Assembly (NCBI GenBank): GCA_021399395.1
Contig: JAAFKJ010000084.1
Coordinates: forward strand, 1-17,855
Reading direction: 5' to 3'
DNA length: 17,855 nucleotides
Origin: Candidatus Heimdallarchaeota archaeon
GTDB taxonomy: Archaea > Asgardarchaeota > Heimdallarchaeia > Heimdallarchaeales > Heimdallarchaeaceae
Positions 4 to 16,497 of this stretch are shown in pieces. Position 1 is the stretch's first letter. Each line of letters starts with the position of its first letter. A program made the position numbers and the translations under genes. The notes below the pieces were generated by a model. The model ran no database searches and was not told the origin of the DNA. It was given only the letters and a program-made list of their open reading frames with translations.

Positions 4-849
4 TTATTCTTGAGATAGAATAACTTTACCGTCCTTATGTTCGATATTTACTCTCCTTTGAACTTGCATATTTTCTACTATATGTCGGGGGAGTTGCACG
101 GATCCAAATCTATCTAAATATACTTCATGCATATCTCTAATTGTTTTGAGATCTTTAGTTGGGGAATAACCAGAGATTCTACCATTCACTATTTGTATAA
201 GTCTGTCTGTAGATTTAGCAACATCAAAATCATGTGTAACCATAATCGCGGTTATTCCATGTGATTCATTCAAACTCTTAAAGAATTTGAGTAACTCTCC
301 AGAGGTTTTTGAATCAAGCTCTCCAGTTGGTTCATCTGCGAGAAGTATTTCAGGTTCATGAGCTAGAGCACAAGCCAAACCAGCTCGTTGAACCTCTCCT
401 CCAGAAAGTTGTCCAGGACGATGGTGAGCTCTGTTTAGTAAACCTACTTCTTCTAATAAATTAGTGGCACGTTTAATCCTCTCTTCTCTCTGATGTCCCA
501 TTAACCTTAAGGGAATCTCAATATTCTGTTGAATGTCAATTTCCCAGATGAGATTTCTATTAGGGATTTGCCATAATGTACCAACCTTTGTTCTTCTGTA
601 TAAGTTACGTGCTTCTTCATTTAATCGGTCTAGTCTAACATCCCCTATACGAACAAAACCTGCAGTAGGTTCGGCCATTCCAGATAGAATGAGAAGGAGA
701 GTAGTTTTTCCACTCCCCGAAGGTCCAATAATTGAGATAAATTCTCCCTGCTCTATTTCTAATTCAATTCCTCTTAAAGCTGGAATTCTGTAATAAGTCT
801 CCTTTGCTTGATAGACTTTTATCAAATCTCTGATTTCTATATATGCCAT
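4..849 (-). CDS. ABC transporter ATP-binding subunit (LolD/MacB family) with short C-terminal AbrB-like extension
   Basis: Walker A GPSGSGKTT, Q-loop LWQ, signature LSGGE, Walker B ILLADEPTG, H-loop MVTHD. The tail VYLDRFGSVQLP...RVNIE..DGKVIL has a swapped-hairpin (AbrB-like) pattern. Starts 8 bp downstream of the permease stop. Confidence 0.95.
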   Translation of the reverse strand: MAYIEIRDLIKVYQAKETYYRIPALRGIELEIEQGEFISIIGPSGSGKTTLLLILSGMAEPTAGFVRIGDVRLDRLNEEARNLYRRTKVGTLWQIPNRNLIWEIDIQQNIEIPLRLMGHQREERIKRATNLLEEVGLLNRAHHRPGQLSGGEVQRAGLACALAHEPEILLADEPTGELDSKTSGELLKFFKSLNESHGITAIMVTHDFDVAKSTDRLIQIVNGRISGYSPTKDLKTIRDMHEVYLDRFGSVQLPRHIVENMQVQRRVNIEHKDGKVILSQE

Positions 850-857
850 AATTTCAC

Positions 858-3800
858 CTATGCAGATTGTCTTAATTCAGTACCTACTTCAGTCTTCGAC
901 ATGGTCATTGTCGGTATAACAGCTCCAGCTAATGAAGCAGCTAGCAATATCGATAGTACTATCGCTATCTGTCCTATTGGGAATTTCATATGATATGAAG
1001 GTATGTTACGATTAATGGACAGAATGGACATTAACAGAATGGAAGCAATGAAACCAATAACCAATCCCATGATTGTACTGAAAGAAAGCATAGTCGCATA
1101 AATTGATATGAAATATTTGTTGAGTTGACCTGAAGAAATTCCAATTGCTTTCATTGTAGCTAGCTCTTTATTCTTGTCAATTAGCTGTATTGATGCAAAT
1201 AAGCCTAAAATTATTGCATTTATTGCAAATGACATCAGTAATGTAGAATTAATTGCTGAATACAATATTGATGATCTAGGACTGTCCGGTTTTACGAATA
1301 ATTGTCTTTCTACATCATAAACCACACTACTTCCTACTAAGGGTGCAATTTCATCAGCAGTATCCGAGATATCATATCCGTCTTTCACTTTTACATAAAG
1401 ATAATTAATAGAACTCAGATAATTATATTGCAAGAAATCCATAATGTTCAACGGAGCAACAAAATGGAAATAAGTAGCTCTTACATTATCCAAGATTAAA
1501 GATGTCAAAAATTGTGGCCATACATTGTAAGTATCGAGAAACTTGAAAGTCACTTCAGTATAGAAAAAAGGTGATCCAAATGCATCTCTGTTGCTTTCAT
1601 TATATGCCCAGTAAGTCATGGTCATTTCACTGCCTTTTGTATAACCAAAGAGCTCAAGTTCATCAACTTGTCCAATCACATAAGAAGAGTTTACATCGCG
1701 AGCATAAGCTAAATCATCTAGTATCTCGTCTAATGGTGTTTGACTGAAATCATCTCTGAAGTGTGCTGCTTGTTTATACGTGTCTGGATCTATCGCGAGA
1801 ATAGATACAGTCGTAGTTAGTCCCTGAGGATCCCGAATGTTTACAAAGCGTACTATTGAAGTTGCTTCAACTTGTTCCATATTTTCTAACGTTTCTTTTA
1901 GAACCGGGTCTTCTAGTGGAAAATTTCTTATCAATATATCTGATCCAAGATCATATTGAGCCCCTTCATAATTGAAATCTTGATACGTGTAAGGTACAAC
2001 AATAGACGTTACAACAAGTGAAAATGATAGACAAAGAATAATTGAAGAACGCGAATAACTCTTTTGATACCTAAATATTTCTCTTAAGCTCAATGAAGGT
2101 ATATCCAGTCTCAATTTTATACTCACTCTGATTAATAATTTGGCAAACAGTGGTAGAAGCCTTTGCGCAGCAAGAATTAATCCGAACAGTAATAACACAA
2201 TTGCAGGTATGCCAATATACCTAGCCGTTCTATACTTGAATTCTGCAAGTGCTGGCATCTCATAAATATACCATAATGCTATTCCTACAACTGCTATAGC
2301 GACATCGACATAGTATTTGTAAAATGCAGGTAATTTTTTCTCAACCTTTCCGTAATCATCTATATTCCTTTTACGTAAAAGTGTAATTGTATTGAATAAT
2401 TGAATTAGAATAATGGCGCCTATACTACCAAAAACTGCTACAGAAACAGAAGATAACTCTATTGTCAATGGAATTGAATCATTATTAAAAGACAAATACC
2501 CTGAACTTCTAGTTAGAAGAGAGGCTATGGGGATTCCACCTGCCACACCAACTGCTAGTGAAACAGTTCCAACTATAAAAGATTCGAGAGATAAATAAGA
2601 TCCTATTTCTACTCTACTTGTACCTCTATCTGCAAGTATAGTTAATTGCCGATCTCTTTTCTTTCTAACAAGGTTTGCAGCATAAACTGTAAGTATAACC
2701 GTAAGAGCTATAATTGGTGCTAGAAATGCAAGCATAAAAGTTTGATAGAGATTGTATTCATTACGGAATTGCTCTATCAGATTTATTAGAGGAGATGTAA
2801 TTCTTACAGAAAGATATGCAGCAAATGTAAGATAAGATTCTTTCAATTCATTTCCCAAAATTTTCAGTTTAGTTATCTCGTCTTGTAATTTGAAAGCATC
2901 AATTTCTGTAACATCATAAAATAAATCTTCTATTATATCGCCTGTACCAACAGTTTTGGCGATATCATGTAATCTATTAGCAGCAATTGGCCACAAGGAG
3001 ATTACTGCAGCAGAATCTGTTAGCTCTAGAACTGTTTCAAGGGGAATTCCATACTGATATTCTAGAACATTATATTTCTGTAAATCATCAAGAAAGATTA
3101 TACCAGTTACATTGACAACTGTTTGTGCCCCCGGATCAGTAAGAGAGTCTTCAATATCCAAAGAAACCGGGATATATAGATCAAGTGGGGAATATGGGTC
3201 AATAGTTGAATGGTTGTAGAAATCACGAGTCATCAGTACTAGAACTTGATCATCTGAAAATGGTTCGGGAGCTGTACCATTCGCAATATTTTGTTCTAGA
3301 TAGGTCCATAATTTCCCATGCGTACCATATAAAGGCATATTTGGTAATATTGACTCATTATACAATGGATCAAAGGTTTGCGTAAACGTTGATCTTCTAA
3401 AGAAAAGATCAATTTGCGAAACTCTATCCGTCACATTTGCAAACTCAACTGCAAGTTCAGCGATTCTAGCAAAACTATTGTAATGATCGTAAGTTGCTCC
3501 AATATTAACAGATTCTACTTCGACTTGAACGTATCTCCGATCTTCCTCTGCTAAATATAAATCAAATGCTTGGAATTGATAAGAGTAGATAAAGAAAACA
3601 TATTGAGTAATAACTGATACAGCTAATGTTACTCCTACTGAAGAGATCAAAGCGTATTTCCACCCTGCTTTGAAGAGAGGTTTGAACAGATGTAATCCGG
3701 GTAGGAAAAACATTGTAACTATATCTACGATTGGGAGAATCACAAGAATTATCGGGGATAGAACCCACATTAGAATAAACATAAATCTTTGATAATTAGC

Positions 3801-3914
3801 CATTTCTGCCAGTTTTGAATTGAATAAAAAGCTGTAAAATGATCTTGTTGTTATAAAGAAATTCTGAAGTAAGTAACGCCTAGACTTCTTTAATCCATTA
3901 CTGTCTCTCTTCAT
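858..3914 (-). CDS. Large tandem FtsX/MacB-type ABC transporter permease
   Basis: 1018 aa with two halves, each a TM + large soluble loop + 3-TM block. FtsX-like motifs RDRQLTILADRGTSR and KNKELATMKAIGIS, and a C-terminal ELRQ. Adjacent to the ATPase gene. Confidence 0.92.
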   Translation of the reverse strand: MKRDSNGLKKSRRYLLQNFFITTRSFYSFLFNSKLAEMANYQRFMFILMWVLSPIILVILPIVDIVTMFFLPGLHLFKPLFKAGWKYALISSVGVTLAVSVITQYVFFIYSYQFQAFDLYLAEEDRRYVQVEVESVNIGATYDHYNSFARIAELAVEFANVTDRVSQIDLFFRRSTFTQTFDPLYNESILPNMPLYGTHGKLWTYLEQNIANGTAPEPFSDDQVLVLMTRDFYNHSTIDPYSPLDLYIPVSLDIEDSLTDPGAQTVVNVTGIIFLDDLQKYNVLEYQYGIPLETVLELTDSAAVISLWPIAANRLHDIAKTVGTGDIIEDLFYDVTEIDAFKLQDEITKLKILGNELKESYLTFAAYLSVRITSPLINLIEQFRNEYNLYQTFMLAFLAPIIALTVILTVYAANLVRKKRDRQLTILADRGTSRVEIGSYLSLESFIVGTVSLAVGVAGGIPIASLLTRSSGYLSFNNDSIPLTIELSSVSVAVFGSIGAIILIQLFNTITLLRKRNIDDYGKVEKKLPAFYKYYVDVAIAVVGIALWYIYEMPALAEFKYRTARYIGIPAIVLLLFGLILAAQRLLPLFAKLLIRVSIKLRLDIPSLSLREIFRYQKSYSRSSIILCLSFSLVVTSIVVPYTYQDFNYEGAQYDLGSDILIRNFPLEDPVLKETLENMEQVEATSIVRFVNIRDPQGLTTTVSILAIDPDTYKQAAHFRDDFSQTPLDEILDDLAYARDVNSSYVIGQVDELELFGYTKGSEMTMTYWAYNESNRDAFGSPFFYTEVTFKFLDTYNVWPQFLTSLILDNVRATYFHFVAPLNIMDFLQYNYLSSINYLYVKVKDGYDISDTADEIAPLVGSSVVYDVERQLFVKPDSPRSSILYSAINSTLLMSFAINAIILGLFASIQLIDKNKELATMKAIGISSGQLNKYFISIYATMLSFSTIMGLVIGFIASILLMSILSINRNIPSYHMKFPIGQIAIVLSILLAASLAGAVIPTMTMSKTEVGTELRQSA

Positions 3915-3967
3915 TAATTTGGTGCAATAACATACACCTATAAGCCTTTTTCTTTCACCAGATAAAT

Positions 3968-3982
3968 CTTATAAATGTTTTT
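3968..3982 (-). promoter_or_regulatory. Putative archaeal BRE/TATA promoter for the ABC permease operon
   Basis: Minus strand reads AAAAACATTTATAAG (purine-rich run then TTTATAA), about 55 nt upstream of the ATG at 3914. Weak evidence in AT-rich DNA. Confidence 0.35.
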
Positions 3983-4002
3983 AGTTTCTTATTTTTGCCG
4001 AC

Positions 4003-4055
4003 AATTCGAATAATTCGAATAATACGAAAGGTTCAAATATTCGAACAATTCAGAT
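4003..4055. repeat. Degenerate ~9-bp tandem repeat with TTCGAA palindromic core; putative operator array
   Basis: AATTCGAAT (4003-4011), AATTCGAAT (4012-4020), AATACGAAA (4021-4029), GGTTCAAAT (4030-4038), ATTCGAAC (4039-4046), AATTCAGAT (4047-4055). Confidence 0.7.
4026..4039 (+). promoter_or_regulatory. Putative BRE/TATA-like promoter of the AAA+-wHTH gene
   Basis: GAAAGGTTCAAATA resembles the archaeal BRE-TATA consensus (GAAAAnTTTAAATA) and lies about 40 nt upstream of the ATG codons at 4078/4084. Confidence 0.4.
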
Positions 4056-4077
4056 GTTGTCTGGATAATATTCTGTG

Positions 4078-5304
4078 ATGCTGATGGATAAATTCGAGAA
4101 GCTAGCTTTAGAGGCGATTGAAGAGAGTAAAACCAGCACTTATACTCCTCAAGATCCATTTGCCTCTTTTGGCTTCAATGCCAATCCATTTCTTGAAACA
4201 ACTATTGAAGAATTACAGAATGAGGAGTGTATTGAATCTAGATTCAGAGTTGTTATCAAATATATTAACAAGGTCTATAATAGTTTTAAAGAGAATTACA
4301 GCGAGAATAAAAGCAATGACAATATCATAATGGATGGAGTTCTGTATGGTTCAAGCCAATCAGGAATGAGTACACTAATTTCGTTATCACATCAATATTT
4401 AGTCAAGGTTCATAAAGAATTAACTAACGCTGTTTATACTGATGCATATGAATTGGTTGAATTTGAAGACAATCAATATTCAATTGCCAAAACCTTCCAG
4501 AATTTCAGGAATCACATAGGGGGACAGAGTACAGAAGGAGATGCAATTCCTCTACTGATTGTAGACCATGCTGATTTCTTAATTGAGTTCTTCGAAGATT
4601 TTCGATACAGTATAGATAGAGATTTTCAAAATACACCAATAGTATTTATCTTCTCTCAAGCGGGTTGGACTAGGTTAAAAAACGAATTAGCATTTTCAGA
4701 ATATGATTTAATCAACCATATGGTTCCAAGTCAAAAAATCAGTTCGCTTAATGAAGATGAAATATTCGAAATTCTTAGTTTGAAACTATCTAAAGACGGA
4801 CAAATACTAAATCCATTTTCTCATGAAATTTTAAAAGCTATATCAAAAAAGTCTAGTGGGAGTTTAATAAATGCCATTAAGATTTGCTCCAAAGTTTGTG
4901 ATGAGTGTTTCATTAACGGTTTAGATGTTGCATCTTTATCTTTTGTTAATGACATTACATCGTTGTTAGCAATAGATGTCAACAAAGAGTTTTTCGATCT
5001 TGTAACGCTTAATGACAATACTCAAACTTTTGTACTTTCTTTAATTGCCATGAAGTCAATTGCATATGATTTTGGAATAACTTATGATGATATTGTTAAT
5101 AATCTAGGCATCCAAAAGAATTCAGCGTCTCATCACCTCAAACAGCTTCAAGAGAAAAGATATCTTATTAAACGAACAGTAAATAGGAAGGCATTTTATC
5201 GATTAAGAGACGAATTGAAAACCCTCGCAGACACTTACTTGATGAAGAGTTTTGAACAGAAAGAGACACTTGTCCGATTAGAGAGTATTTCCGATTTAAT
5301 CTAA
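4078..5304 (+). CDS. AAA+/P-loop fold protein with C-terminal winged helix (Cdc6/Orc1- or ExeA-like architecture), probably catalytically inactive
   Basis: N-terminal DPFASFGFNANPF, P-loop-like VLYGSSQSGMST, Walker B-like LLIVDHAD, lid region PFSHEILKAISKKSSGSLINAIKIC, and C-terminal ArsR/MarR-like wHTH (ITYDDIVNNLGIQKNSASHHLKQLQEKRYL...RKAFYRL). Start is uncertain (GTG 4075, ATG 4078 or ATG 4084). Confidence 0.8.
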   Translation: MLMDKFEKLALEAIEESKTSTYTPQDPFASFGFNANPFLETTIEELQNEECIESRFRVVIKYINKVYNSFKENYSENKSNDNIIMDGVLYGSSQSGMSTLISLSHQYLVKVHKELTNAVYTDAYELVEFEDNQYSIAKTFQNFRNHIGGQSTEGDAIPLLIVDHADFLIEFFEDFRYSIDRDFQNTPIVFIFSQAGWTRLKNELAFSEYDLINHMVPSQKISSLNEDEIFEILSLKLSKDGQILNPFSHEILKAISKKSSGSLINAIKICSKVCDECFINGLDVASLSFVNDITSLLAIDVNKEFFDLVTLNDNTQTFVLSLIAMKSIAYDFGITYDDIVNNLGIQKNSASHHLKQLQEKRYLIKRTVNRKAFYRLRDELKTLADTYLMKSFEQKETLVRLESISDLI

Positions 5305-5832
5305 TCATTCAATCGAAAACACAAGGTCAGCAGTTTTCTTTACTGCCACACTAAAACCTGGTTCAAACCCTATAACCACTGTTTCTATACCTTTTTCCTT
5401 CACTTTTAGCAAAATTGGAGAGATTCTAGCATGCCTTGAAGCAATTACAATGATATCAGGTTTGATTCCTTTTTCTATTACTTTCATTATCTCTATAGAC
5501 ATCAAAATATAGATATTTTGAGGACTGACAATTGGTTCATATCCACTGTTTGTAATTGCTTTAATCAAATTATCAGTTGCAAATTCATTGAGGAAGACTT
5601 TTCTTACAACTGCATTCCCCATGTTTTCAATTTTATCATCAATTTCCTCTAATCGTATTTGTCTATTTTTGACTTTGCGTAAGAAATTTGGTCCATCTAC
5701 AAATACAGCCAATTTTTTTTCACTTGAAATGCGCAAACGCAGATTCTGAATATAAGAACTATTTAAAATTCTATTAGTGATTCTTTCAACTAACTTTTTC
5801 TCTTCAGCAGTTTCTTCTTCTATTTCAGCCAT
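5305..5832 (-). CDS. NYN/LabA-DUF88 domain protein (archaeal TIGR00288-like) with degenerate active site
   Basis: LAVFVDGPNFLRK, KVFLNEFATDNLIKAITNSGYEPI and KEKGIETVVIGFEPGFSVAVKKTAD match the family pattern. I prefer the ATG at 5832 over the GTG at 5841. Confidence 0.88.
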   Translation of the reverse strand: MAEIEEETAEEKKLVERITNRILNSSYIQNLRLRISSEKKLAVFVDGPNFLRKVKNRQIRLEEIDDKIENMGNAVVRKVFLNEFATDNLIKAITNSGYEPIVSPQNIYILMSIEIMKVIEKGIKPDIIVIASRHARISPILLKVKEKGIETVVIGFEPGFSVAVKKTADLVFSIE

Positions 5833-5880
5833 AATAATCACATGAGATAAAAAGAATAAAAGAATGGAAAACTAAGCGGT

Positions 5881-7509
5881 TTAAGTTTCCTCTTCTTTTT
5901 CCTCTTCATATGAAAGAGGTGGTGTTAAAAGAGCAGTTGATTCGATAAAAGTTTTCCCAGATTCGATGTTCTGTTTAATGTAACCAAAATAATCTAATTC
6001 GAACACATATTTTGAAGCCACTTCATCTGGAACATTGAGCATCTTTGACAATTCTTCCTTAGCCAAAGGTCTTTGGAAATCATTTAAGAGATACAGAATA
6101 CGATATTTTGGATCAGTATTCAAGAACGCTTCTACAGATTTTAAGGATTTGTTCAAAGTATCTATTCTCTTCTTTAATCGTTGAATATCCAGTTCATATT
6201 GATATTTCTCTTCTGAAGAGAGAGTTCCTTGTTTTTCCATTGTTTCTAGAGTGCTTTTAGTGGTAGTCAATTCCTTCTGAGATTCATTAAGCCTTGCTTT
6301 TAGATCTTCAATTGAATCTTGTCTTTCTAGGATTTGTTCCTCAACCTTTTCTCTTTCAGTAATGGATTTATCCGCAATGTCTCTAAATTCTTTTATTTCT
6401 GCTTCTTTTTCAGCAAATTGCAAAATTATTTCATCAGCTTGAGTTTGCAGCTTGTGGAGTTCTTGATCCTTCCCGCTGATTTCTTGTTGGAGTTCAACCA
6501 TTGTCTCAGCTAACCGCTCCATGTCTGAATCTTTTTGATGTAGCTGTTGTCTCAATTCAGTTACTTGTTCAGTATCTTCAGCTTTACCAGCAGCTTGATC
6601 TTGTATATCTTGAACTTGTTTCTTTAACGTATCAATTTGAGATGATTTTTGTTGAATGTCGATCTTTTGGTTTCGAACTGTATCTTCATGTTCAGCAACT
6701 TGGTTTCTTAGATTGAAGATAGTTTGTCGAGCATTATCTAATTGCTTTTGAAGATCGTCAAAAAGTGTATCTTCTTTAGAGATTGCTTCTGATGACATTG
6801 ATCTCAATCTTGTCTCCATTTCTTCAACATGCTGACTCATTGCATCTCTTTCAATTTTAATTCTGTTAAATTCTGACTGAAGATTGTTTTTCTCAAGACT
6901 TAGCTGATGCATTGTTCTGTCTTTATCCATAATGACTTGATCTCTTGCTTCAATTATGGTAGAATCAACGCCTACTGTTGTTGCTTTTTCAGACAATTCA
7001 CCTATTGCTTGATCTTTACTCTTAAGAACAGATTGCATGTCAGTGAACTCGTTTTGCAGTGAAATTGTTTCTGCTTTTAAGTTTCCAATTAGATCATTCA
7101 ATTCATCGAGTTTCAATGCGTCATCTTGAATTTTGGTTTCAAGTCCTGGAATTTTTGCTGCTTCCGTCCTGAGCTTTTCAAGTTCACCTAGCATTTCTTG
7201 AGTAATGAGTTTCGCATCTATGTATCCCTGTTCGATGCCTTGTCTAATTTTAGAAGTACTCTCTGTTACTACCATCAGGTGAATATCTCTTAGAAGACCA
7301 ACGTAACTGTTCTTGAAGTTTCTAATAATACCATCTACTTCCGAAACAGAATACTGCGCCTTTCCAGGAGCTAAAGAGTTACTTTTGATTTCTTCAGCTC
7401 GTGCTTTAGCTTGTTCTTCTGAAGTGACTCTGATAACTTTCATTTCACCTAGAAATTTCTTTACTAAAGAGCGCACTACACTAAAGGGACTTTCAGTTTC
7501 TATAGCCAT
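5881..7509 (-). CDS. Long coiled-coil protein with C-terminal winged helix
   Basis: About 350 aa of E/Q/K/L-rich heptads, then DPKYRILYLLNDFQRPLAKEELSKMLNVPDEVASKYVFELDYFGYIK (wHTH-like) and an acidic tail. No Walker motifs, so it is not a true SMC. Confidence 0.85.
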   Translation of the reverse strand: MAIETESPFSVVRSLVKKFLGEMKVIRVTSEEQAKARAEEIKSNSLAPGKAQYSVSEVDGIIRNFKNSYVGLLRDIHLMVVTESTSKIRQGIEQGYIDAKLITQEMLGELEKLRTEAAKIPGLETKIQDDALKLDELNDLIGNLKAETISLQNEFTDMQSVLKSKDQAIGELSEKATTVGVDSTIIEARDQVIMDKDRTMHQLSLEKNNLQSEFNRIKIERDAMSQHVEEMETRLRSMSSEAISKEDTLFDDLQKQLDNARQTIFNLRNQVAEHEDTVRNQKIDIQQKSSQIDTLKKQVQDIQDQAAGKAEDTEQVTELRQQLHQKDSDMERLAETMVELQQEISGKDQELHKLQTQADEIILQFAEKEAEIKEFRDIADKSITEREKVEEQILERQDSIEDLKARLNESQKELTTTKSTLETMEKQGTLSSEEKYQYELDIQRLKKRIDTLNKSLKSVEAFLNTDPKYRILYLLNDFQRPLAKEELSKMLNVPDEVASKYVFELDYFGYIKQNIESGKTFIESTALLTPPLSYEEEKEEET

Positions 7510-7608: not shown

Positions 7609-8292
7609 TTAATCAAGCTCTAGCGATAAATGAAATAAATTAAAACGAAATTCATCCATTTCTTGTAAAAAACCAGATAACTGAGAAAATGCTACGATGG
7701 GTGTATTTTGATGAAACTGAATATCATGATCCCTCCACGAGATAATTATGGGATAAAGAAGAATCTTTCTCTTTATTGGCAGTAGAAGCTTTGAAACTAG
7801 TTCTTCATACAGAATTGGAAACATTTCCAACAATACTTCAGTTCTCTCTTTCTGTTTTATAGCAGCTGTTTTCATACTCGATGAAGTTGGGTTCTTATAA
7901 TGCTTACAGTCAATCACAAAAAGATAAGGAAATTTGAATGCAAGAACATCGATTTCATATTTTGTAAATTCATCTTTGAATCTAAAATTTGTTTGAACTG
8001 TGTAATCCATTTTATCAAAAATAGCTGAAATTATGATTTCAAATCCCTTCCAGTCCAGAAACTCTGATATTGCCCCTAAATTTGATCCATATTCGATTAA
8101 TCTTAGGATTATCATACCTTTTGTTTTGTCAGAAAATTCAGAATTATTAAAGAAACTAGCTAAATCAATATCTAAAGAGCTTAAGATCATTTCACATTTT
8201 TCTTTAACAAGAACTGTAAGTTGTTCAAGTTTGATTTCTTTAGTACGAAATAAATGACTAAGAATCAAATTACTTGCTTCATCTAATTTCAC
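7609..8292 (-). CDS. PD-(D/E)XK restriction-endonuclease-like protein (Mrr_cat/NERD-like)
   Basis: LDWKGFE helix, then YEIDVLA ... VIDCKHY and a Q-containing helix (AAIKQ). This is the E...D...(D/E)xK catalytic layout. GTG start. Confidence 0.85.
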   Translation of the reverse strand: MKLDEASNLILSHLFRTKEIKLEQLTVLVKEKCEMILSSLDIDLASFFNNSEFSDKTKGMIILRLIEYGSNLGAISEFLDWKGFEIIISAIFDKMDYTVQTNFRFKDEFTKYEIDVLAFKFPYLFVIDCKHYKNPTSSSMKTAAIKQKERTEVLLEMFPILYEELVSKLLLPIKRKILLYPIIISWRDHDIQFHQNTPIVAFSQLSGFLQEMDEFRFNLFHLSLELD

Positions 8293-8334: not shown

Positions 8335-9099
8335 CTATTCAGGTCTAGCTGATTTCACTCTATGGATAACAATCTCTCTTGTTAATTGTTCAATTGGTTG
8401 AGCTACTTTTTGAACGCTAAGAGGTCTTGCTCCTTTCTTTAGTCGCCCGTACTCGTCTAATTTCGATTTTATGTCAGGACTTCTAAGAAGTGTCATTAGT
8501 TCATTTCTTGCTTGAAGACATGATGTTTCTATTACTCTCATGTAAGCCTCTCCTTTGTTGTTGGAAAGTTTTTTCTCTATAAGTAAATCGAGAAACTTAT
8601 CTGTAGCCATTCTTTCTTCAGCTGGTAAATCGATTTTATTCAAAACGACTATAAATGGAAGAGATTTCCCTAACACATCTCCTTTAAGAGAGATTAGTTC
8701 AGTTAAACTCTCAACGTTATCGTCCCACATATTTTTGCTAGGGTCAAACATGAAAATTAAACCATCTGCCCCTTCGAGTACTACTTTTCTTTGTATATAG
8801 TGTCTCTTTTGTCCAGCTACAGTCCAGACCTGATAACGTAATTTTGGAAAACTTACCCCTTGACCTTTAGGCAATTCAAATGTACTTTGGTCATAGAATA
8901 TAGTTCTACCACTTGGGTCATCAATCTTTTTGAGCGAAGAGTAAATTGTTTCAGGATCTTCTACTTTCCTCAAAACATTATATACGGTCAACATAGAAGT
9001 TTTACCAGAAAGTGACGGACCATATATCACTAGTTTTAAGTAAGGGACCCCTGAACCATCAACTTTGAAGATATCTTTGATTGTTAATCTGCCTGACAT
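8335..9099 (-). CDS. MglA-like small GTPase (Ras superfamily)
   Basis: G1 YGPSLSGKTS; switch I GRTIFYD (MglA RTLFFD); G3 TVAGQ (MglA TVPGQ, not DxxG); RKVVLEGADGLIFMFD; G4 NKID; G5-like ETSC. Confidence 0.92.
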   Translation of the reverse strand: MSGRLTIKDIFKVDGSGVPYLKLVIYGPSLSGKTSMLTVYNVLRKVEDPETIYSSLKKIDDPSGRTIFYDQSTFELPKGQGVSFPKLRYQVWTVAGQKRHYIQRKVVLEGADGLIFMFDPSKNMWDDNVESLTELISLKGDVLGKSLPFIVVLNKIDLPAEERMATDKFLDLLIEKKLSNNKGEAYMRVIETSCLQARNELMTLLRSPDIKSKLDEYGRLKKGARPLSVQKVAQPIEQLTREIVIHRVKSARPE

Positions 9100-9252: not shown

Positions 9253-9924
9253 TTAGAGTGCTTGATTATGCTCATCCAATAAGCTTTTCTCATCTCTATG
9301 CAAAGAAACAGCTAATTCGGCAACTATTCCATCTAGAAATGCTAAAGATGCTTGTTCAAAGGCAGTTCCTTCTGGTGCTAAAGTGCTGTCCAAACCTTTG
9401 CTTCTTCGTTCCAAATCAGATTTAGTTCTACCTTTAAGTTTTACAGTTACATCCCCCAGTCTTCCAATCACGCTCGTTGGATAACTCGTAATAACGATTA
9501 CAAAAGGATTAAACACAAGGTAGGTCTCTAGCATTGCTTTTACTATCGGAGTCGTTCCTGAACCACTAATAACGACAATAGTATCATCTTCTCTTAATCG
9601 TGGAACAGATCTTGTATTTGTTATAAAACGACTCTCAACTCCAAAATGCTCTAAACGTGTCTGGAACATTTGTCCAATCATTGCACTTCTTCCACTTGCT
9701 AAGATATAGACCCGTTTCTTGTTTTGAATGTCTTGCATTAACCTATCTCTTACATCCTGAACATATTCATAGTGTTCAGTCATATGGATTATATTTTCTC
9801 TCAAATTCGTTGCCATTAATTCCATTGATAGAATAATTACAGGTTTATCTGCAGAAATAGCTAGATTTTTGATGCTTTCATCAGCAACAATTTTTTCTTT
9901 TTTCGAATTCTTGCCTTTTGACAT
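9253..9924 (-). CDS. hxlB: SIS-domain sugar isomerase, 6-phospho-3-hexuloisomerase (PHI)-like
   Basis: RVYILASGRS, VVISGSGTT, ITSYPTSVIGRLGD, LAPEGTAFE and a C-terminal His match PHI motifs (GxGRS, SGSGET, APLGTLFE). I prefer the ATG at 9924 over the TTG at 9945. Confidence 0.8.
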   Translation of the reverse strand: MSKGKNSKKEKIVADESIKNLAISADKPVIILSMELMATNLRENIIHMTEHYEYVQDVRDRLMQDIQNKKRVYILASGRSAMIGQMFQTRLEHFGVESRFITNTRSVPRLREDDTIVVISGSGTTPIVKAMLETYLVFNPFVIVITSYPTSVIGRLGDVTVKLKGRTKSDLERRSKGLDSTLAPEGTAFEQASLAFLDGIVAELAVSLHRDEKSLLDEHNQAL

Positions 9925-9944
9925 TTTCTCACTTAGAAATTTCA

Positions 9945-9996
9945 AGATGAGTTTTTTGAAAGAAAGTTCACATTGTTGAACTCTTTCACCTCATCT
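9945..9996. repeat. Imperfect inverted repeat / hairpin upstream of the PHI-like gene
   Basis: AGATGAG (9945-9951) pairs with CTCATCT (9990-9996), TGAAAGA (9957-9963) with TCTTTCA (9982-9988), and GTTCA (9966-9970) with TGAAC (9977-9981), closing a 6-nt loop. Confidence 0.65.
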
Positions 9997-10168: not shown

Positions 10169-13096
10169 ATGAAATTCTGGGACAAGTTGTTAAAGAAACC
10201 AAAAATCCTTGCAATCTGCGTTCTGCTATTTTGGTCTTTACTTGTTTCTATCAATATTAACAAAATATTAAATGTCTCAGACTATGTTGAGGATGAAGGA
10301 TCAAACCTCACCACTTCAAGACCTTCTGAATCTTCAGTGGGTACAGATATTCTCGCATCTTTCAGTGAGGTAAATAGTTCGTTTCAAATCTTGATTTACA
10401 ATCCTGACGGTAGTATTCTTACAGATGAGATTCATTCGTTTATCTCTAGCTTAATTTATAATATTTCACACAATCCAAATATAGGTCCATTTTTGTCACC
10501 GAGTCAACCTTACTCTTCACTTTTTGATGATGCTGATAATTTGTTAAGATCAATATTGAACTTGCAATGGTTTGCAACCCAAATGTCCTTTTCATCAATC
10601 CATTTTGTTTGGGGAGGATTAGAATATTTTAGTAATATATGGAGTATTCAGTATAATGCTACAAGTGATATTGAATTTGCAACTGGTGTTGCAAAGACTT
10701 TGACAAAAAACTATGTTGAGACCGTTCTAAGTACATATAATGAATCTAGATATTTGGATTCAGCCTTTGATTTCTATAATCACTTTTCAAGCATCTTTGA
10801 ACTTGCTGCAAACTCTTCAACCCCCAATAACTTAGAGGAAGTCATACTTCTGTCTAAAAGTATTATTAGTAACAATGTCAGTTTCTTTGAAGAAATCACT
10901 TCTGATTATCGCCAACAGCAATTGCTTCTGTCTATTTCTGATAATTTCAATATGAGTATGTGGCAAAATCCTGCATATGGTTATCAGAAGATTTCTGAGT
11001 TCTTGTTTGATTCAAATGAAACTTCTTGTGTTGATTTCGTCCAAGAAGTATATGCAGATGGAGATATTGAAGGTTTTATTGATGCTAAGAATAAATATCT
11101 TCTACCAATTTTAAGATTAGAACAGACTATTCCTCCTATAACTAATGATATCATTGAGACTTTCTTGAAACAGTATACAAATTACAACTCAAGTATTGGA
11201 AAAACTGATGCAACGATAGTAAAATTCAATGTAGCGCTAAATCATCTAAATGAAAAAGGTAAAGGGGTATATTTAGAATTACTAGAGATATTACCACAAA
11301 TAAAAGAGGATAGTATCCCTCTTGAGATTCATGCCACAGGAATTGACTTCTTCATCATAGAGATTTCGTTAGATTATGAGCAACAGTTATCGAAAACAGA
11401 TCTTATCGTAATTATATCAATAGTTGTTATTCTATTGTTAGTTTATAGGTCTCCGATTCTTCCTTTAATACAAATATTCGTTCTAGCTATAGCCTTTGGC
11501 GTCTCACGTTTAATATTCATAGGAATTGGTACAAGCATAGGCGGTTTGGGATCAACAAGTTTAATGATTCTTAGCGTAAGTCTTCTAGGAGCTACTACAG
11601 ACTATTGTGTATTTTTGATGGGAGACTACTTGCAAAATCTTCAGAATACAAAAACAAAGATGGATGCTTTGAAAGTTACACTTAAACGAACATCTAAGAG
11701 TATTGTTATTTCTTCAATTTCACTAACTGTTGGATTTGGTGCATTGATTCTCAGTAGATTTGCTACTGCTACAGGATTGGGAATTGGTGGATCCATTGGT
11801 TTTCTCACTAGTATGGTTGTATCTTTAACACTAATTCCAGCTCTGTTAATTCTAATTAAAGCAGATATTCTAACTAAGTGGAGAATTAACTTTAAACTGT
11901 TTAAGAAACGGAAGTTTTCAATTATGAAATATGTTAAAAAATCTGTTCAGAACCCAAAGAAAATCTTAGTAATTGCGCTGGTAATTTCAATAATTGGTAC
12001 AGTTATTTTCTTTGTAGTTCCTACAGATTATGCTCAAATATCCACCGCCCCACCAACATACTATTCGAGGCAAGGTTTGGATGCAATAAATGAGCATATG
12101 GGAGTCGATCAAATTAGTCAAGTCATCATTCTTTTCAAAACTACAGATGTAGATCCCTTCTTATTGGAAAACCAAAGTTTAAACATAGATTCAATCAATC
12201 ACGTTCTTGCGATAGTAGAAGAAGTTAGTAAAGAAGCGGACTTAAACATAATTTCGGGTTTAAGTCATCCTCTGGGAACGCCGTATCATGAAAGCATGGA
12301 AAATAGTTCTCTATTTCTAATAGAAGAAATACAAATCTTGATGAAGAATTTTATTCTAGCAGATAGTACATATGGAATCGTAGTATGTGGATCCCAATAT
12401 GTTGAAGGTGATGAGAAACTTGATATCCAGATTGAAGCTGTTAGAGACACCATTCAATCACAACTTGCAGAAAGAGATATTTCTTCATGGAACACATATG
12501 TTACAGGGTTTGCTCCTGTTCTATATGATTCAAAAATGGGTATCTCTCTTGACTTCAATCTAATTTTTGTTTTTGCATCTTTAGCAATAGTCTCGCTTCT
12601 CCTCTTGTTCTTAAGAGATTTCTTAATGTCTATAAGAGTACTAGTTACTATTATGATGTCATTAGGAATTAGTCTAGGCATTTTTAGTATTATAGCTCTG
12701 CTGTTTCTAGGTGGCCAAATCTATTGGATTGTTCCCCTAATGCTATATGCAGTTTTAACAGCTTTAGGATTAGATTTTGATGTACTTTTCTTAGGAATAT
12801 TCGATAATATTTATCAAAAGAAACAAAACTCGGGTGAAGCGATTATCGAATCAGTTAGGCAAACAATGAACAACATCTCTGTTGCTGGTTTAATAATGGC
12901 AGTAACTTATCTGAGTTTGGTTTTTACATCTTCTATTCACATGCAGCAGCTTGGGCTAGGGCTTGGTATTGGTATTCTAGTTGATGTATTCGTATCTAGA
13001 CTGTTTATAGTACCTCCTGCAATTGTTGTTTCATTTAGAGAAGAAAAGAAGAAAAAGAAAGCAGCAGAAAAAAAGGTGATAAAGGATGAAAAGTAA
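10169..13096 (+). CDS. MMPL-family (RND superfamily) transporter
   Basis: Two TM1 + loop + 5-TM halves. Motifs LVYRSPILP, LGATTDYCVFL, SIVISSISLTVGFGAL, SLTLIPALL, ALGLDFDVL and FIVPPA. Lys-rich C-terminal tail. Confidence 0.93.
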   Translation: MKFWDKLLKKPKILAICVLLFWSLLVSININKILNVSDYVEDEGSNLTTSRPSESSVGTDILASFSEVNSSFQILIYNPDGSILTDEIHSFISSLIYNISHNPNIGPFLSPSQPYSSLFDDADNLLRSILNLQWFATQMSFSSIHFVWGGLEYFSNIWSIQYNATSDIEFATGVAKTLTKNYVETVLSTYNESRYLDSAFDFYNHFSSIFELAANSSTPNNLEEVILLSKSIISNNVSFFEEITSDYRQQQLLLSISDNFNMSMWQNPAYGYQKISEFLFDSNETSCVDFVQEVYADGDIEGFIDAKNKYLLPILRLEQTIPPITNDIIETFLKQYTNYNSSIGKTDATIVKFNVALNHLNEKGKGVYLELLEILPQIKEDSIPLEIHATGIDFFIIEISLDYEQQLSKTDLIVIISIVVILLLVYRSPILPLIQIFVLAIAFGVSRLIFIGIGTSIGGLGSTSLMILSVSLLGATTDYCVFLMGDYLQNLQNTKTKMDALKVTLKRTSKSIVISSISLTVGFGALILSRFATATGLGIGGSIGFLTSMVVSLTLIPALLILIKADILTKWRINFKLFKKRKFSIMKYVKKSVQNPKKILVIALVISIIGTVIFFVVPTDYAQISTAPPTYYSRQGLDAINEHMGVDQISQVIILFKTTDVDPFLLENQSLNIDSINHVLAIVEEVSKEADLNIISGLSHPLGTPYHESMENSSLFLIEEIQILMKNFILADSTYGIVVCGSQYVEGDEKLDIQIEAVRDTIQSQLAERDISSWNTYVTGFAPVLYDSKMGISLDFNLIFVFASLAIVSLLLLFLRDFLMSIRVLVTIMMSLGISLGIFSIIALLFLGGQIYWIVPLMLYAVLTALGLDFDVLFLGIFDNIYQKKQNSGEAIIESVRQTMNNISVAGLIMAVTYLSLVFTSSIHMQQLGLGLGIGILVDVFVSRLFIVPPAIVVSFREEKKKKKAAEKKVIKDEK

Positions 13097-14726
13097 GAAA
13101 AAAGTAGTTTCAACTATACTGATGCTTATTTTATTTTTCAACCCTTATCATATATCATCAAGTTTTGAAGATGATTTTCGAGCAATAAGTTTTGAAGATA
13201 AAGGATATCTGTTAAATTATGAGATCATTCAAGGAGAGAATCTTAATGAAATGTTTGAAAATCTTGGATTTGATATTGATGGTTCATTTACAGGTAGTCA
13301 ATTCAATATTTTAGTAAAAAACAGATTATCTGAGATTAGAGACATTTACTTCATAGAATCTGATAAAATTGAGCAAATTGAGGTTCCAGTATATTCTTAT
13401 GAGAATTATGTTGAATTAAGCGGTTCTCTAACTGCTAGCATCGATATGGGAGGAGAATTCTTAACTGATCTTATAGGATTTAACTATCATCCAGTTGAGC
13501 CTAAAGTACTAGAAGCAGAATTACCTGAAACATCTACAATTTATCTTCCCAATATTTTCACGAATATAACTAGACCAAATTTTGGAAGTTTGATGACTAA
13601 CTTAGATTACTTTGATTTTCTACCTTTCATTATTGGAAATGACTTTAACAGATATGAAGCTGAATTTTCAAGTTTGATTTTGAATGAATCTTTTACTGTC
13701 AACGTTTATAACCAAGATTATGAGGAGTTTACTATTTCTCTTGACATAGATTTAGAAACACCATTAAAGATGAAAGCAACTTGGGATAAACATTCAGGAC
13801 TATTGCTCTCGCTCTCACTACATTTTATCTATGATGAAAGGAGTAGTGTTTTCATCATAGCCTTGAATAATTATGAAGAAATACAAACTCCAATTACACA
13901 ACCAGACAAAACTTTTTTCATCACTAATAGTTCTGCAAATTATGAAGTATTTACTGAAGATGTTGGAACAGAATTAAGACTTGAAGAATGGAAAACTTGG
14001 TTTGATCAATTAAACCAAACATTTGGATTGAGATATTCATTCGCTCATGAAGGCTTGAATTTTGATGAGTATTTAATGGTTTATAACCAAGAAGATGAGA
14101 TGTATTATCCATCAACTCCAATTCATGATTCCTGGATATCATTTCTCCCACCAGCTGTAATCCCCATTTGGGACAGTTACATTGGTGCCGTAAATCTAAT
14201 AGAGAGTATATGGACGCAATTAGAAGAGGAGATAAATAATTTCGAATTCATACTCTCAGGGGTAACAAGTACCTTATATTCATTTCAAGATGCAGATCTA
14301 CATCTAGAATATCAATTTAATGACGGATTGCATCAACTTCTTTGGTATGGAGCGCTTCATTATATCAGCAATAATACAAGAAAAGTTGTCCCAAGTTATG
14401 CGGTAACTGAAATAAGCTTTGAAACAGATGGTTGGTTAGCATATTCTCAAGAAGGTTTACTGGAAGGTTTTTCGTTTTATTTCAGTGAGTTTTACAATTC
14501 CTACTTACAAAATATTACAGATTTCTCAATCACTGAGACATATGACAATTACTATTACGATTATTTCTTAGAATCTAAACCAGAAAATATAACTGAACCT
14601 TATTTTACAGAAACAAATGAAACAGCTATAAATGTATCAATTTTGCAGATAGTCTTTTATTCAATAGTAGCTTACTCTTATCTTAGGAAAAACAGAAAAA
14701 AGAGGGAAAAGAATGAATACTTCTAG
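13086..14726 (+). CDS. Hypothetical secreted acidic protein with C-terminal membrane anchor
   Basis: Signal peptide MKSKKKVVSTILMLILFF, D/E/Y/F-rich body with several N-x-S/T sequons, a Thr/Glu-rich linker, a C-terminal hydrophobic helix and a basic RKNRKKR tail. Overlaps the MMPL gene by 11 bp. Confidence 0.85.
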   Translation: MKSKKKVVSTILMLILFFNPYHISSSFEDDFRAISFEDKGYLLNYEIIQGENLNEMFENLGFDIDGSFTGSQFNILVKNRLSEIRDIYFIESDKIEQIEVPVYSYENYVELSGSLTASIDMGGEFLTDLIGFNYHPVEPKVLEAELPETSTIYLPNIFTNITRPNFGSLMTNLDYFDFLPFIIGNDFNRYEAEFSSLILNESFTVNVYNQDYEEFTISLDIDLETPLKMKATWDKHSGLLLSLSLHFIYDERSSVFIIALNNYEEIQTPITQPDKTFFITNSSANYEVFTEDVGTELRLEEWKTWFDQLNQTFGLRYSFAHEGLNFDEYLMVYNQEDEMYYPSTPIHDSWISFLPPAVIPIWDSYIGAVNLIESIWTQLEEEINNFEFILSGVTSTLYSFQDADLHLEYQFNDGLHQLLWYGALHYISNNTRKVVPSYAVTEISFETDGWLAYSQEGLLEGFSFYFSEFYNSYLQNITDFSITETYDNYYYDYFLESKPENITEPYFTETNETAINVSILQIVFYSIVAYSYLRKNRKKREKNEYF

Positions 14727-16497
14727 TGTTCAATCAAATAAATTCGTGTTAGATACAAATTTCTTCATTAGTGGTTTTGAGAAAAATCCATCAGATTTTT
14801 CTATTTTTCTCGACATCATATCTGATATGGGTAAAGAATTATATGTAACTAGCAACATTCTTCAAGAAATCCGGTGGTATCTCAGAAGAAGGATTAAAGA
14901 ACCTGTTCAAATTATTAGAGTCCCAATTAAAGATATCAGAGAGTTTAAAGATACTTTAGATGAAAATGTTTCTTCACCCCAACTTAACGACCTTTCAAAT
15001 ATTGTAGCCGCAAAAAAGATTAATGGGATTGTTGTTTCAAGTGATTTAAAACTTGTAAAAGCATGTGAATCTGTTGAGGTACCTGTTCTCATTAGCTCAT
15101 CTTTCATTTTTCTATTAAGAAATACTTGTCTCAAAGCAGAACACAATGAAGCATTAGATACTATACATGACGTGATTCTTTCCGATGAAATTCGTCATTC
15201 AGTTGAAAAACGACAGATGTTTGATCCCGTTACTAGAATTAAAAAAATACAAGAACATGCAATCAGTGTTTTACAGAAATTTACACAAGTTGATCAAATA
15301 TCTCCAAAACAAGAAACAGCTCAATATCATACCCTTCCCGAAGAAAACAAACTTATAGAAATGATGAATGAGATAGAGTTTGAATTCCCCAATTACTTAG
15401 AAAAGGTTGAATCAGGTAACTTAGAATCTTTGCGATTTGAACTAGAAGAAGCATATATCATTCTATCAGATTTATCTCTTGAATTGAGAATAGCCCTATT
15501 GGAAAAAGAAAGTTATATAGAAGAATTATCTGTTAGGCTAAAAGCTAGGATTCTTTACCTTCTCAGTATAGTTGAATTTACTTTACTGGATTTTGAAAAA
15601 CTTGATGGTCATTTGAATACATTAACAGAAATATCAGCAATCTTTCCAAAACTGGTTTCAGATATCTTTATGGATCTTCATTTTCTCAGGATGGTTTATT
15701 TTCTTGTAACAGATAATCATGATAGACTGAAAGGATATTACTCAGAAAAATTCCTTTTTCTATGCGAAAGACAAGATAGATTAGATTTACTAGGATTAAC
15801 TAGAGCTGTAATCTTAGCTTCAACTATCATGGAAAGTGGGTTAATTGATAAGAGAGCCGTAATAGATGGCGAGGACGAGATTGCACTTCTAATTCAAATA
15901 GGGTATATTTTATTACAAAGAGAACAATTTGAGCATGCTCTACTCATTTTACTTCAATCTCACTACTTAGCATTAAATTTGAAGAATATAATATTGGCAA
16001 AAGATACACTCGAGATATTGGTTATTCTACATTATGCTATAAAAGAGAGATGCACAGAAGAAATTTATCAAGGAATTGAAGATTTGCAGGAGTTAGGGGT
16101 TTATGAATTACCAATTATCAGTTATGCAGATATAACAGAATTACAAGCATTAACTACAACAGATTATGTTCCGATAAATGAACTAAATGTTCTTCTTCAA
16201 GACTGGTTCTATATATATCATAGTGGCAGATATGTGAAGGGAGGGGAAGTTTATACCTATATTCTGTTAAAAAATCCCTATTATTCACCACGAATAGCTT
16301 TGATATTTAACACAACTTTCTCCCCTTACGATGTGAGTCCAGGTAGACAAATAAAAATCTATGAAGGATCAGCCAAAGTATCAATCTCGAAAGAATCTTC
16401 AATTAATGGTTTTCCTGTTGATCTTCTAGTTGAGGTAGATGAAAAAGAGGGGAAGTTTATCTTTAGAGGTCAATTTGGAATGAAAATAATATTGTAA
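14713..16497 (+). CDS. PIN-domain protein fused to a long helical region and a beta-rich C-terminal domain
   Basis: FVLDTNFF, VTSNILQEI, NDLSNI and VVSSDLKL...VPVL give the PIN acidic quartet. About 330 aa of Leu/Glu-rich helices follow. Overlaps the upstream gene by 14 bp. Confidence 0.85.
   Translation: MNTSSVQSNKFVLDTNFFISGFEKNPSDFSIFLDIISDMGKELYVTSNILQEIRWYLRRRIKEPVQIIRVPIKDIREFKDTLDENVSSPQLNDLSNIVAAKKINGIVVSSDLKLVKACESVEVPVLISSSFIFLLRNTCLKAEHNEALDTIHDVILSDEIRHSVEKRQMFDPVTRIKKIQEHAISVLQKFTQVDQISPKQETAQYHTLPEENKLIEMMNEIEFEFPNYLEKVESGNLESLRFELEEAYIILSDLSLELRIALLEKESYIEELSVRLKARILYLLSIVEFTLLDFEKLDGHLNTLTEISAIFPKLVSDIFMDLHFLRMVYFLVTDNHDRLKGYYSEKFLFLCERQDRLDLLGLTRAVILASTIMESGLIDKRAVIDGEDEIALLIQIGYILLQREQFEHALLILLQSHYLALNLKNIILAKDTLEILVILHYAIKERCTEEIYQGIEDLQELGVYELPIISYADITELQALTTTDYVPINELNVLLQDWFYIYHSGRYVKGGEVYTYILLKNPYYSPRIALIFNTTFSPYDVSPGRQIKIYEGSAKVSISKESSINGFPVDLLVEVDEKEGKFIFRGQFGMKIIL

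Follow-up and report, generated by a model that had tools for sequence, protein, structure and literature searches.

Archaeal Orc1/Cdc6 proteins (2qby, 1fnn and 1w5s) combine an AAA+ core, a lid and a C-terminal winged helix in about 400 amino acids (aa), and the archaeal ATPase_2 + DUF234 proteins (2fna, 2qen), whose function is unknown, also join an AAA+ domain to a C-terminal winged helix. In AAA_22/ExeA-like proteins (PF13401; TIGR03015, which we take to be the ExeA-like, XrtA/PEP-CTERM-associated ATPase), an FG[LF]xxxPF motif ahead of the P-loop is typical. The AAA+ fold can be retained as a structural module after the nucleotide motifs are lost, as in ORC2, ORC3 and the clamp-loader subunits delta and delta-prime, which work in hetero-oligomers with active paralogues. 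Autoregulation at a near-palindromic operator is typical of the ArsR/SmtB winged-helix repressors. Saccharolobus islandicus Orc1-2, a non-initiator Orc1 paralogue, is reported to be a global DNA-damage regulator (PMC9738581), i.e., an Orc-shaped AAA+/winged-helix protein acting as a sequence-specific transcription regulator. Here, we analyzed a gene found at 4084..5304 (+) in a 17,855-nucleotide (nt) stretch of DNA from Candidatus Heimdallarchaeota archaeon (contig JAAFKJ010000084.1; hereafter, the window). It encodes an AAA+/lid/winged-helix protein with a degenerate nucleotide site, for which we propose a comparable role. With modest confidence, we favor the reading that it is a hydrolysis-dead, oligomerizing winged-helix regulator that acts on its own gene, independently of ATP, from a 9-base-pair (bp) repeat operator in the promoter.

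Three catalytic positions are substituted in a conserved protein

The + strand frame from 4078 to 5304 is open in the translation of the window and encodes 408 aa. The probable start is ATG 4084, giving 406 aa, because the orthologues start with MDKFEK and M3 is invariant; GTG 4075 and ATG 4078 are alternative in-frame starts. Codon 4366-4368 is ATG and gives M97, inside the degenerate Walker A motif GSSQSGMST (residues 91-99; 4348..4374, +). Codon 4567-4569 is CAT and gives H164, inside the degenerate Walker B motif LLIVDHAD (residues 159-166; 4552..4575, +), where D163 is retained. The third, codon 4867-4869, is ATA and gives I264 inside GSLINAIK, at the sensor-2 Arg position of the lid-helix motif GSLINAI (residues 261-267; 4858..4878, +). 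In profile-profile alignments, M97 and H164 aligned with the Walker A Lys and the Walker B Glu, respectively, of both the genome's own Orc1/Cdc6 proteins and Lys-keeping relatives (the Walker A Lys was kept in 40/40 relatives from outside the window's family); I264 faced the Arg of a GDAR motif in the profile alignment to the genome's own Orc1/Cdc6 only. The changes of Lys to Met and Glu to His, and the Ile at sensor 2, had been read from the same codons in the initial annotation, and the alignments place all three.

A word-based search returned 45 homologues with 43-100% identity, all of about 400 aa, and the source labels among those named were Heimdallarchaeota, Heimdallarchaeaceae, Asgard and one Thorarchaeota, in agreement with the Asgard origin suspected earlier. 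When a family profile was run against 400 Asgard genomes, the gene was found in 28/30 genomes of the window's family, spanning five genera, at one locus each; the two genomes with no match are 81% and 76% complete. The same profile gave no match in the 16 genomes of three sister families of the same order. Fifty coding sequences were reduced to 27 distinct orthologous proteins, and the losses were common to all of them. The Walker A Lys position was occupied by V (11), I (11), M (3), A (1) or T (1), never by K or R, and the sensor-2 position by L (12), I (7), N (3), K (2), H (2) or D (1). G96, D163, H164, D166, W197, R199, K201, C274 and C277 were each present in 27/27 sequences, and S/T98 and T/S99 were retained. 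No close orthologue retaining GKS/DE was found.

The loss of three catalytic motifs together could point to a decaying gene, i.e., a recent loss of ATPase function in this copy under relaxed selection. This explanation was refuted by the family-wide losses and by the ratio of nonsynonymous to synonymous substitution rates (dN/dS), and we give it practically no credence. By the Nei-Gojobori method, 35/351 pairs were usable (dS 0.05 to 1.5), and the 27 pairs with at least 80% identity showed a dN/dS of 0.05-0.17 for the whole protein and 0.04-0.12 for the AAA+ core; the remaining 8 pairs (≤49% identity, dS 1.3-1.5) gave 0.31-0.46, near saturation. The frame is intact at all orthologous loci. The protein is an old, maintained pseudo-ATPase under strong purifying selection on every domain, and selection is not relaxed in this copy. 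The proposal of the initial annotation that the frame is intact and keeps its winged helix held, and that of a dead ATPase that still binds DNA is well supported. A single metatranscriptome contig of 151 nt matches 4533-4683 with 3 differences. It hints faintly at transcription in a close relative and is too little for a claim of transcription or for mapping a start site.

A conserved 9-bp repeat array lies in the gene's own promoter

An array not described in the initial annotation was found ahead of the gene. Tandem Repeats Finder detected 5.6 copies of a 9-bp repeat with the consensus AATTCGAAT (4003..4051, no strand assigned) in the 163-bp gap to a divergent FtsX/ABC operon, and we consider it a putative operator. 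Its hexamers are TTCGAA at 4005, TTCGAA at 4014, TACGAA at 4023, TTCAAA at 4032, TTCGAA at 4040 and TTCAGA at 4049, and two adjacent hexamers form a 15-bp near-palindrome. A TATA-box-like sequence, TTCAAATATT (4032..4041, +), can be read inside the array about 45 nt ahead of the start codon. The orthologues have TTTTAAAATA, TTTTAATATT or TTCTTATAAT as counterparts of this AT-rich box, and we infer that it may act as a TATA box. Between it and the start codon, the orthologue alignment showed another conserved element, AGATGTTGTCTGGATAATATT (4052..4072, +); TGTCTRGATAAT has two occurrences in the genome.

The array was conserved across 13 aligned loci. The 70-nt core at 4003-4072 is 59-99% identical to 12 orthologous loci, the proteins of which are 43-83% identical, and the core exceeded the protein in 12/12 comparisons; identity drops to 33-81% in the flank at 3954-4002. 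The hexamer TTCGAA is not enriched genome-wide (1012 seen versus 965 expected), and the pair TTCGAA-N3-TTCGAA occurs in one place of the 2.8-Mb genome. TTCGAA triples at 9-bp spacing were found in this promoter and at one weak site, C191:10039 (L104), where TTCCAATAATTAGAAGTATTCGAA is followed by an AT-rich box. That site and C31:25638, which carries TTCGAA-N5-TTCGAA, are both intergenic and near a contig end; no other TTCGAA-type arrays were found elsewhere in the genome, and the two are possible further binding sites. We also considered whether the conserved upstream region could be an RNA structure, and this was rejected: RNAalifold gave -4.6 kcal/mol with an unfavorable covariation term, and no RNA family of Rfam was found in the window.

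TTCGA repeats at the same spacing were observed upstream of Lys-keeping relatives from three other lineages. In G398 and G399, TTCGAATAATTCGAA stands immediately ahead of the TATA-like box TTTTAAATAG, and in G309, TTCGAAATATTCAAA stands immediately ahead of the TATA-like box GTTTAAAT. The upstream regions of a sister family, f5, carry TTCGA[AT]TAGTTCGAT, and one of them (L080) has three tandem TTCGATTAG. A loose pair pattern was present in 14/27 upstream regions of relatives belonging to three other families (2 of the 27 truncated), versus 0.0038 expected per region, and these 14 regions represent three lineages. The motif-bearing relatives have in common an ST.S[HY][HY] recognition helix, and the relative in G001 lacks both helix and motif.

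The domain that could read these repeats is the C-terminal ArsR/SmtB-like winged helix (residues ~300-395; 4975..5262, +), with KNSASHHLKQLQE (5116-5154, +) as its recognition helix, which bears the S-H-H-L signature of ArsR/SmtB repressors. Hidden Markov model (HMM) scans gave sub-cutoff matches to this class: NCBIfam ArsR/SmtB NF033788 with an E of 2e-6 and 27.5 bits against a cutoff of 55, and HTH_5 with 15 bits against a cutoff of 22 for the protein and sub-cutoff matches in 21/30 members. PDB sequence searches, with the single protein and with a profile, matched only ArsR/SmtB-type winged helices. At the structural level, VIA, an independent all-against-all search, matched SmtB (8qkf_B) to residues 290-397 with a Z of 10.4 over 93 residues and a root-mean-square deviation of 3.8. 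The HMM scans and the PDB profile search thus indicated an ArsR-like winged helix and not Cdc6_C. Unlike in the repressors, the domain is here the tail of a 400-aa AAA+ protein and the putative operator is an array with several 9-bp copies; no metal site of the ArsR type was identified in this protein.

Because the conserved array lies in the gene's own promoter, a role in transcription regulation is proposed, with autoregulation as in the ArsR/SmtB class. Judging from co-conservation, the winged helix would read the TTCGAA hexamers at 9-bp spacing, and the 15-bp near-palindrome would suit a winged-helix dimer. Several copies could bind side by side, joined by the degenerate AAA+/lid body, and occupation of the B recognition element (BRE)/TATA region would repress transcription of the gene itself; the divergent FtsX/ABC operon, about 90 bp away, might also be controlled. 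In the Lys-keeping relatives, nucleotide binding presumably gates this DNA binding, and in the lineage of the window the switch may have been frozen or passed to another signal. A two-copy homodimer prediction with the family alignment gave a score of 0.01 and a mark of 0.42, which speaks neither for nor against self-association.

Several points weigh against this proposal. What ties the winged helix to the repeats is co-conservation alone, and the kin are not independent, so that the motif counts amount to about four lineages; in 13/27 upstream regions of relatives the loose pair pattern was not found. A regulator whose only strong site lies in its own promoter would be odd, and the triple-array scan gave only the weak site C191:10039 besides this promoter. 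Moreover, invariance extends to the GxxxxGxS/T shape of the P-loop, to the Walker B Asp and to the N-terminal NPF, so nucleotide or another ligand may still be bound.

The array could also be an iteron-like or centromere-like site or part of an origin, with the protein as an architectural, partition or initiator-type DNA organizer. Direct tandem repeats stand here beside the gene of an Orc-shaped AAA+/winged-helix protein, much as iterons go with Rep, ORB elements with Orc1 and parC with ParR, and genes for a coiled-coil SMC-like protein and a small GTPase belong to the conserved neighborhood. However, the array is only 49 bp long, lies within the 163-bp promoter region and overlaps the TATA-like box, and it has neither a flanking AT-rich unwinding region nor an inverted ORB pair. 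The gene is chromosomal, syntenic and unlinked to Orc1/Cdc6, and the neighbors of the relatives differ. We consider this explanation very improbable.

Predicted fold and sequence kinship

The AlphaFold2 (AF2) model, built on 30 sequences, had a predicted local distance difference test score of 86.2 and a predicted template modeling score of 0.84. It contains an alpha/beta core with strands at 86-91, 119-122, 160-163, 188-193 and 219-221, a helical lid at 226-296 and a winged helix at 302-393. When Foldseek was run against the PDB, the top match was the archaeal Orc1/Cdc6 2qby_A (E 4.7e-11), followed by eukaryotic ORC1/Cdc6 and then by the archaeal ATPases 2fna and 2qen, RuvB, Apaf-1 and TnsC. 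Similarly, VIA ranked 2qby_A first (Z 16.8, 300 residues), with 1fnn and 1w5s at 14.8, TnsC at 14.1, 2qen at 13.2 and MuB at 12.5; the ORC2/3 chain 5uj8_A, with a Z of 11.4, was lower than Orc1/Cdc6, TnsC and 2qen. The ATPase_2 + DUF234 proteins (2fna, 2qen) reached Z values of 11.9-13.2 over about 285 residues, not above other AAA+ chains. The model thus predicts that the AAA+ core, the lid and the C-terminal winged helix are arranged as in Orc1/Cdc6. We know of no ExeA-type AAA+ domain that has been solved, and the first rank of Orc1/Cdc6 may therefore partly reflect the content of the PDB. Between strand 2 (119-122) and strand 3 (160-163), DSSP assigned one 15-residue helix, one 4-residue helix and short strands, and no clear two-helix initiator-specific motif, which in Orc1/Cdc6 is a helical insert after strand 2, was apparent in the model.

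The lid helix of the model (263-280) carries a CxxxCxxC motif formed by C270, C274 and C277 (4885..4908, +), at positions i, i+4 and i+7 of the one helix. C274 and C277 are subfamily-specific, and C270 was present in 25/27 orthologues. These residues are candidates for a metal site, a redox site or an interface.

Profile comparisons place the protein outside Orc1/Cdc6 at the sequence level. The NCBIfam scan of the protein gave no match to TIGR02928 at E≤1, and a genome-wide scan with this model found 9 places, none on this contig; three true Orc1/Cdc6 genes lie on other contigs. The Cdc6 lid was matched by 3/30 members and Cdc6_C by 2/30 (best E 0.061), and hhalign of the family alignment (A1, 30 of 46 sequences) against the genome's own three Orc1/Cdc6 proteins returned a probability of 24%. 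Pfam yielded sub-cutoff matches only, to helix-turn-helix families at 322-366 and to AAA_22 (PF13401; 13 bits versus a cutoff of 27, E 0.13); AAA_22 was also sub-cutoff in 14/30 orthologues (best E 0.0099). No specific sequence match to ORC2-5 was seen, and Pfam gave no family-level match of the protein to ATPase_2, which appeared, below cutoff, only in the distant relatives P0056 and L101. The description as Cdc6/ORC-like in the initial annotation therefore stands for the AAA+ fold, with Orc1/Cdc6 as the best structural match, and fails for family membership.

A search of 1.84 billion representative proteins gave 11 matches. Four are full-length clusters of this type and three are fragments; the four others are distant proteins that retain GKT or GKS. 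Motif loss was also seen in three more distant clusters (P0047-P0049), and the nearest clusters in the ESM Atlas were archaeal AAA_22 and HTH_5 proteins. With hhalign, eight Lys-keeping Asgard relatives aligned to this family over the full length with a probability of 99.9% (E 2e-34), and the same eight aligned to Orc1/Cdc6 with 98.4% (E 1e-14). The AAA_22 cutoff was passed by the relatives P0056 (42.7 bits), L094 (31 bits) and L101 (86 bits, E 2.9e-24). TIGR03015 matched L068 with an E of 4e-16 and P0056 with 9e-19, and their orc1/cdc6 match was only 4e-5. L101 comes from the same order as the window and has an ExeA-like look with FFGLKRNPF at its N-terminus; it lacks a winged helix, and its end is a hydrophobic segment that probably spans the membrane. 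In our protein, conservation is highest in the N-terminal motif PQDPFxxFGFxxNPF (residues 24-38; 4147..4191, +), in which P24, Q25, P27, F31, G32, F33, N36, P37 and F38 are invariant in A1. Its FGFxxNPF part (FGFNANPF, ahead of the P-loop, invariant in A1) is common to the Lys-keeping relatives and is explained by its resemblance to the FFGLKRNPF of L101. Collectively, chained homology makes the protein the Heimdallarchaeaceae representative of an AAA_22/ExeA-like family of AAA+ proteins that is found across Asgard archaea and carries an ArsR-type winged helix. These ATPases are its closest sequence kin and share the N-terminal FG[FL]xxNPF; unlike them, it falls below the AAA_22 cutoff, lacks the P-loop Lys and has the C-terminal ArsR-like winged helix. 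A word-based search with the Lys-keeping P0053 returned P0053 alone, and a literature search found no paper describing this family.

The initial annotation had suggested that the protein is a dead-ATPase DNA-binding scaffold or regulator that may hetero-oligomerize with an active paralogue. The partner could be an AAA+/winged-helix protein, e.g., one of the three Orc1/Cdc6 proteins encoded in the genome, much as ORC2/3 take part in eukaryotic ORC and delta-prime in clamp loaders, and our protein might donate an arginine finger. The Orc1/Cdc6-like fold would suit such a role, as would the segment GWTRLK (residues 196-201; 4663..4680, +) that opens the helix after strand 4, the usual place of arginine fingers; W197, R199 and K201 are invariant, and R199 is, by position only, a candidate finger. 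Tandem paralogue pairs in family f5 suggest that heteromers may exist elsewhere in the wider family. Nevertheless, a wider-family profile gave exactly one match, this gene, in all 29 listed genomes of the window's family (G000 included), and searches of the own genome with the protein and with a Lys-keeping relative retrieved only this gene and no paralogue. None of the three Orc1/Cdc6 genes lies closer than 184 kb to this gene in two complete genomes. The low hhalign probability against these proteins and the absence of an alignable counterpart of GWTRLK in the Lys-keeping relatives also stand against it, and we regard the hetero-oligomer as improbable.

The protein is like ORC2, ORC3 and the clamp-loader subunits in retaining the AAA+ fold after motif loss, and unlike the ORC2/ORC3-type subunits in having no same-family partner in this genome family and no specific sequence link to ORC2-5. 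It likewise differs from archaeal Orc1/Cdc6 in that it lacks the Lys of Walker A, the Glu of Walker B and the Arg of sensor 2 and is encoded away from Orc genes, and, unlike S. islandicus Orc1-2, it is not a true Orc1 family member. ORC2-5 have been counted with the replisome genes that the last eukaryotic common ancestor acquired (PMC12680538); the passages of that paper examined here do not mention this family, and its supplements could list it.

The nucleotide site in the Lys-keeping relatives

In the 40 Lys-keeping relatives, the residue after the Walker B Asp was D (12), N (11), E (6), K (4), S (3), H (2), R (1) or G (1), i.e., the catalytic Glu was absent in 34/40. The sensor-2 Arg was absent in 35/40, and the 5 relatives that have it are all among the 6 having DE. 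The closest relative (G398) already has IIDHAD at Walker B. This pattern, with Lys in every relative and Glu and Arg mostly gone, indicates that residues for hydrolysis disappeared in much of the wider family, and the Lys only in the lineage of the window. In family f5 (L074, L077-L092), the relatives lie in tandem paralogue pairs, in which the first gene encodes ~450 aa with GLRGxGKS and IFIDD/N, and the second ~380-410 aa with GPxGSGKT and IFLDN/K.

A remodeled pocket that binds ATP, ADP or another phosphorylated ligand without hydrolysis would make the protein a regulator that senses a ligand; such a reading agrees with the operator model apart from the role given to the AAA+ domain. G96, S/T98, T/S99, D163, D166 and the N-terminal NPF show little or no variation, the AAA+ core is constrained as much as the winged helix, and the scarcity of the catalytic Glu and the sensor-2 Arg among the nearest Lys-keeping relatives makes the family look like binders, not motors. 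On the other hand, 25/27 orthologues carry a hydrophobic residue (V, I or M) in place of the Lys, a change that normally abolishes phosphate binding, and no compensating basic residue was identified. We hold this explanation to be possible and rather unlikely.

As an extension of the ATP-independent operator regulator that we favor, the AAA+ nucleotide switch may have been dismantled stepwise, with the operator kept throughout and, in the lineage of the window, expanded, ending in an ATP-independent nucleoprotein filament for gene control. The series would run from DE, Arg and GKT, through D[NDHS] and GKT with no Arg, to the absence of the Lys. If true, there would be a nucleotide-free side-by-side or helical oligomer over the promoter, in which each 9-bp repeat takes one winged helix and about six of these stand in a row. 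This scenario is speculative, and we think it unlikely.

Gene neighborhood

The divergent operon encodes an ABC ATPase (4-849, -) and an FtsX-type permease (858-3914, -), both assigned by Pfam, and FtsX is directly adjacent and divergent in 19/23 orthologous loci. In the stretch 3915-3975, ACCTATAAGCCTTTTTCTTT is conserved beside the FtsX start, and on the minus strand AAAGAAAAAGGCTTATAGGT, about 27 nt before the ATG at 3914, looks like the BRE/TATA of a leaderless FtsX/ABC transcript. The FtsX/ABC operon (4..3914) is a possible second target of the regulator. The neighbors of the Lys-keeping relatives differ, and include a weak NurA-domain match (E 8e-5, in the gene after the single relative of G398), Mrr_cat (an endonuclease gene after the f5 tandem pair of G073) and CLP1_P; no FtsX/ABC-type neighbor was seen beside those examined. 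Because of these other neighbors, only autoregulation looks ancestral.

The conserved gene order in the family is ABC, FtsX, this gene, NYN, coiled-coil protein, NERD/Mrr-like, small GTPase, SIS and MMPL. In the window, these include an NYN nuclease-like gene (5305-5841, -; Pfam), a 542-aa coiled-coil protein with SMC/Rad50-rod-like matches only (5881-7509, -), a NERD/Mrr-like PD-(D/E)xK protein (7609-8292, -), a small Ras/Arf-like GTPase (8335-9099, -) and a SIS-domain protein (9253-9945, -). NYN was present in 14/20 loci with informative downstream sequence and the coiled-coil protein in 19/23 loci. Across loci, identity reaches 84-96% for the GTPase where it is 48-83% for the AAA+ protein. 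Two long open reading frames (546 and 594 aa) at 13086-16497 (+) overlap the end of the MMPL gene as well as one another; Pfam and further profile scans gave no family match to them, save a weak N-terminal PIN in the second. A defense-system reading of the locus was rejected as uninformative, since PADLOC gave only winged-helix matches for this protein (Csa3, E 1e-5, residues 307-393) and coiled-coil matches for the neighbor.

Significance

The tempting link between this Heimdallarchaeal gene and the inactive ORC2-5 subunits of eukaryotes is removed as unsupported. In its place, the analysis defines an uncharacterized Asgard-wide AAA+/ArsR-winged-helix family with a candidate operator of TTCGA hexamers at 9-bp spacing. 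Its natural variants grade from intact nucleotide sites to fully degenerate ones and offer a convenient system in which to ask what an AAA+ module may contribute to a DNA-binding regulator without ATP.

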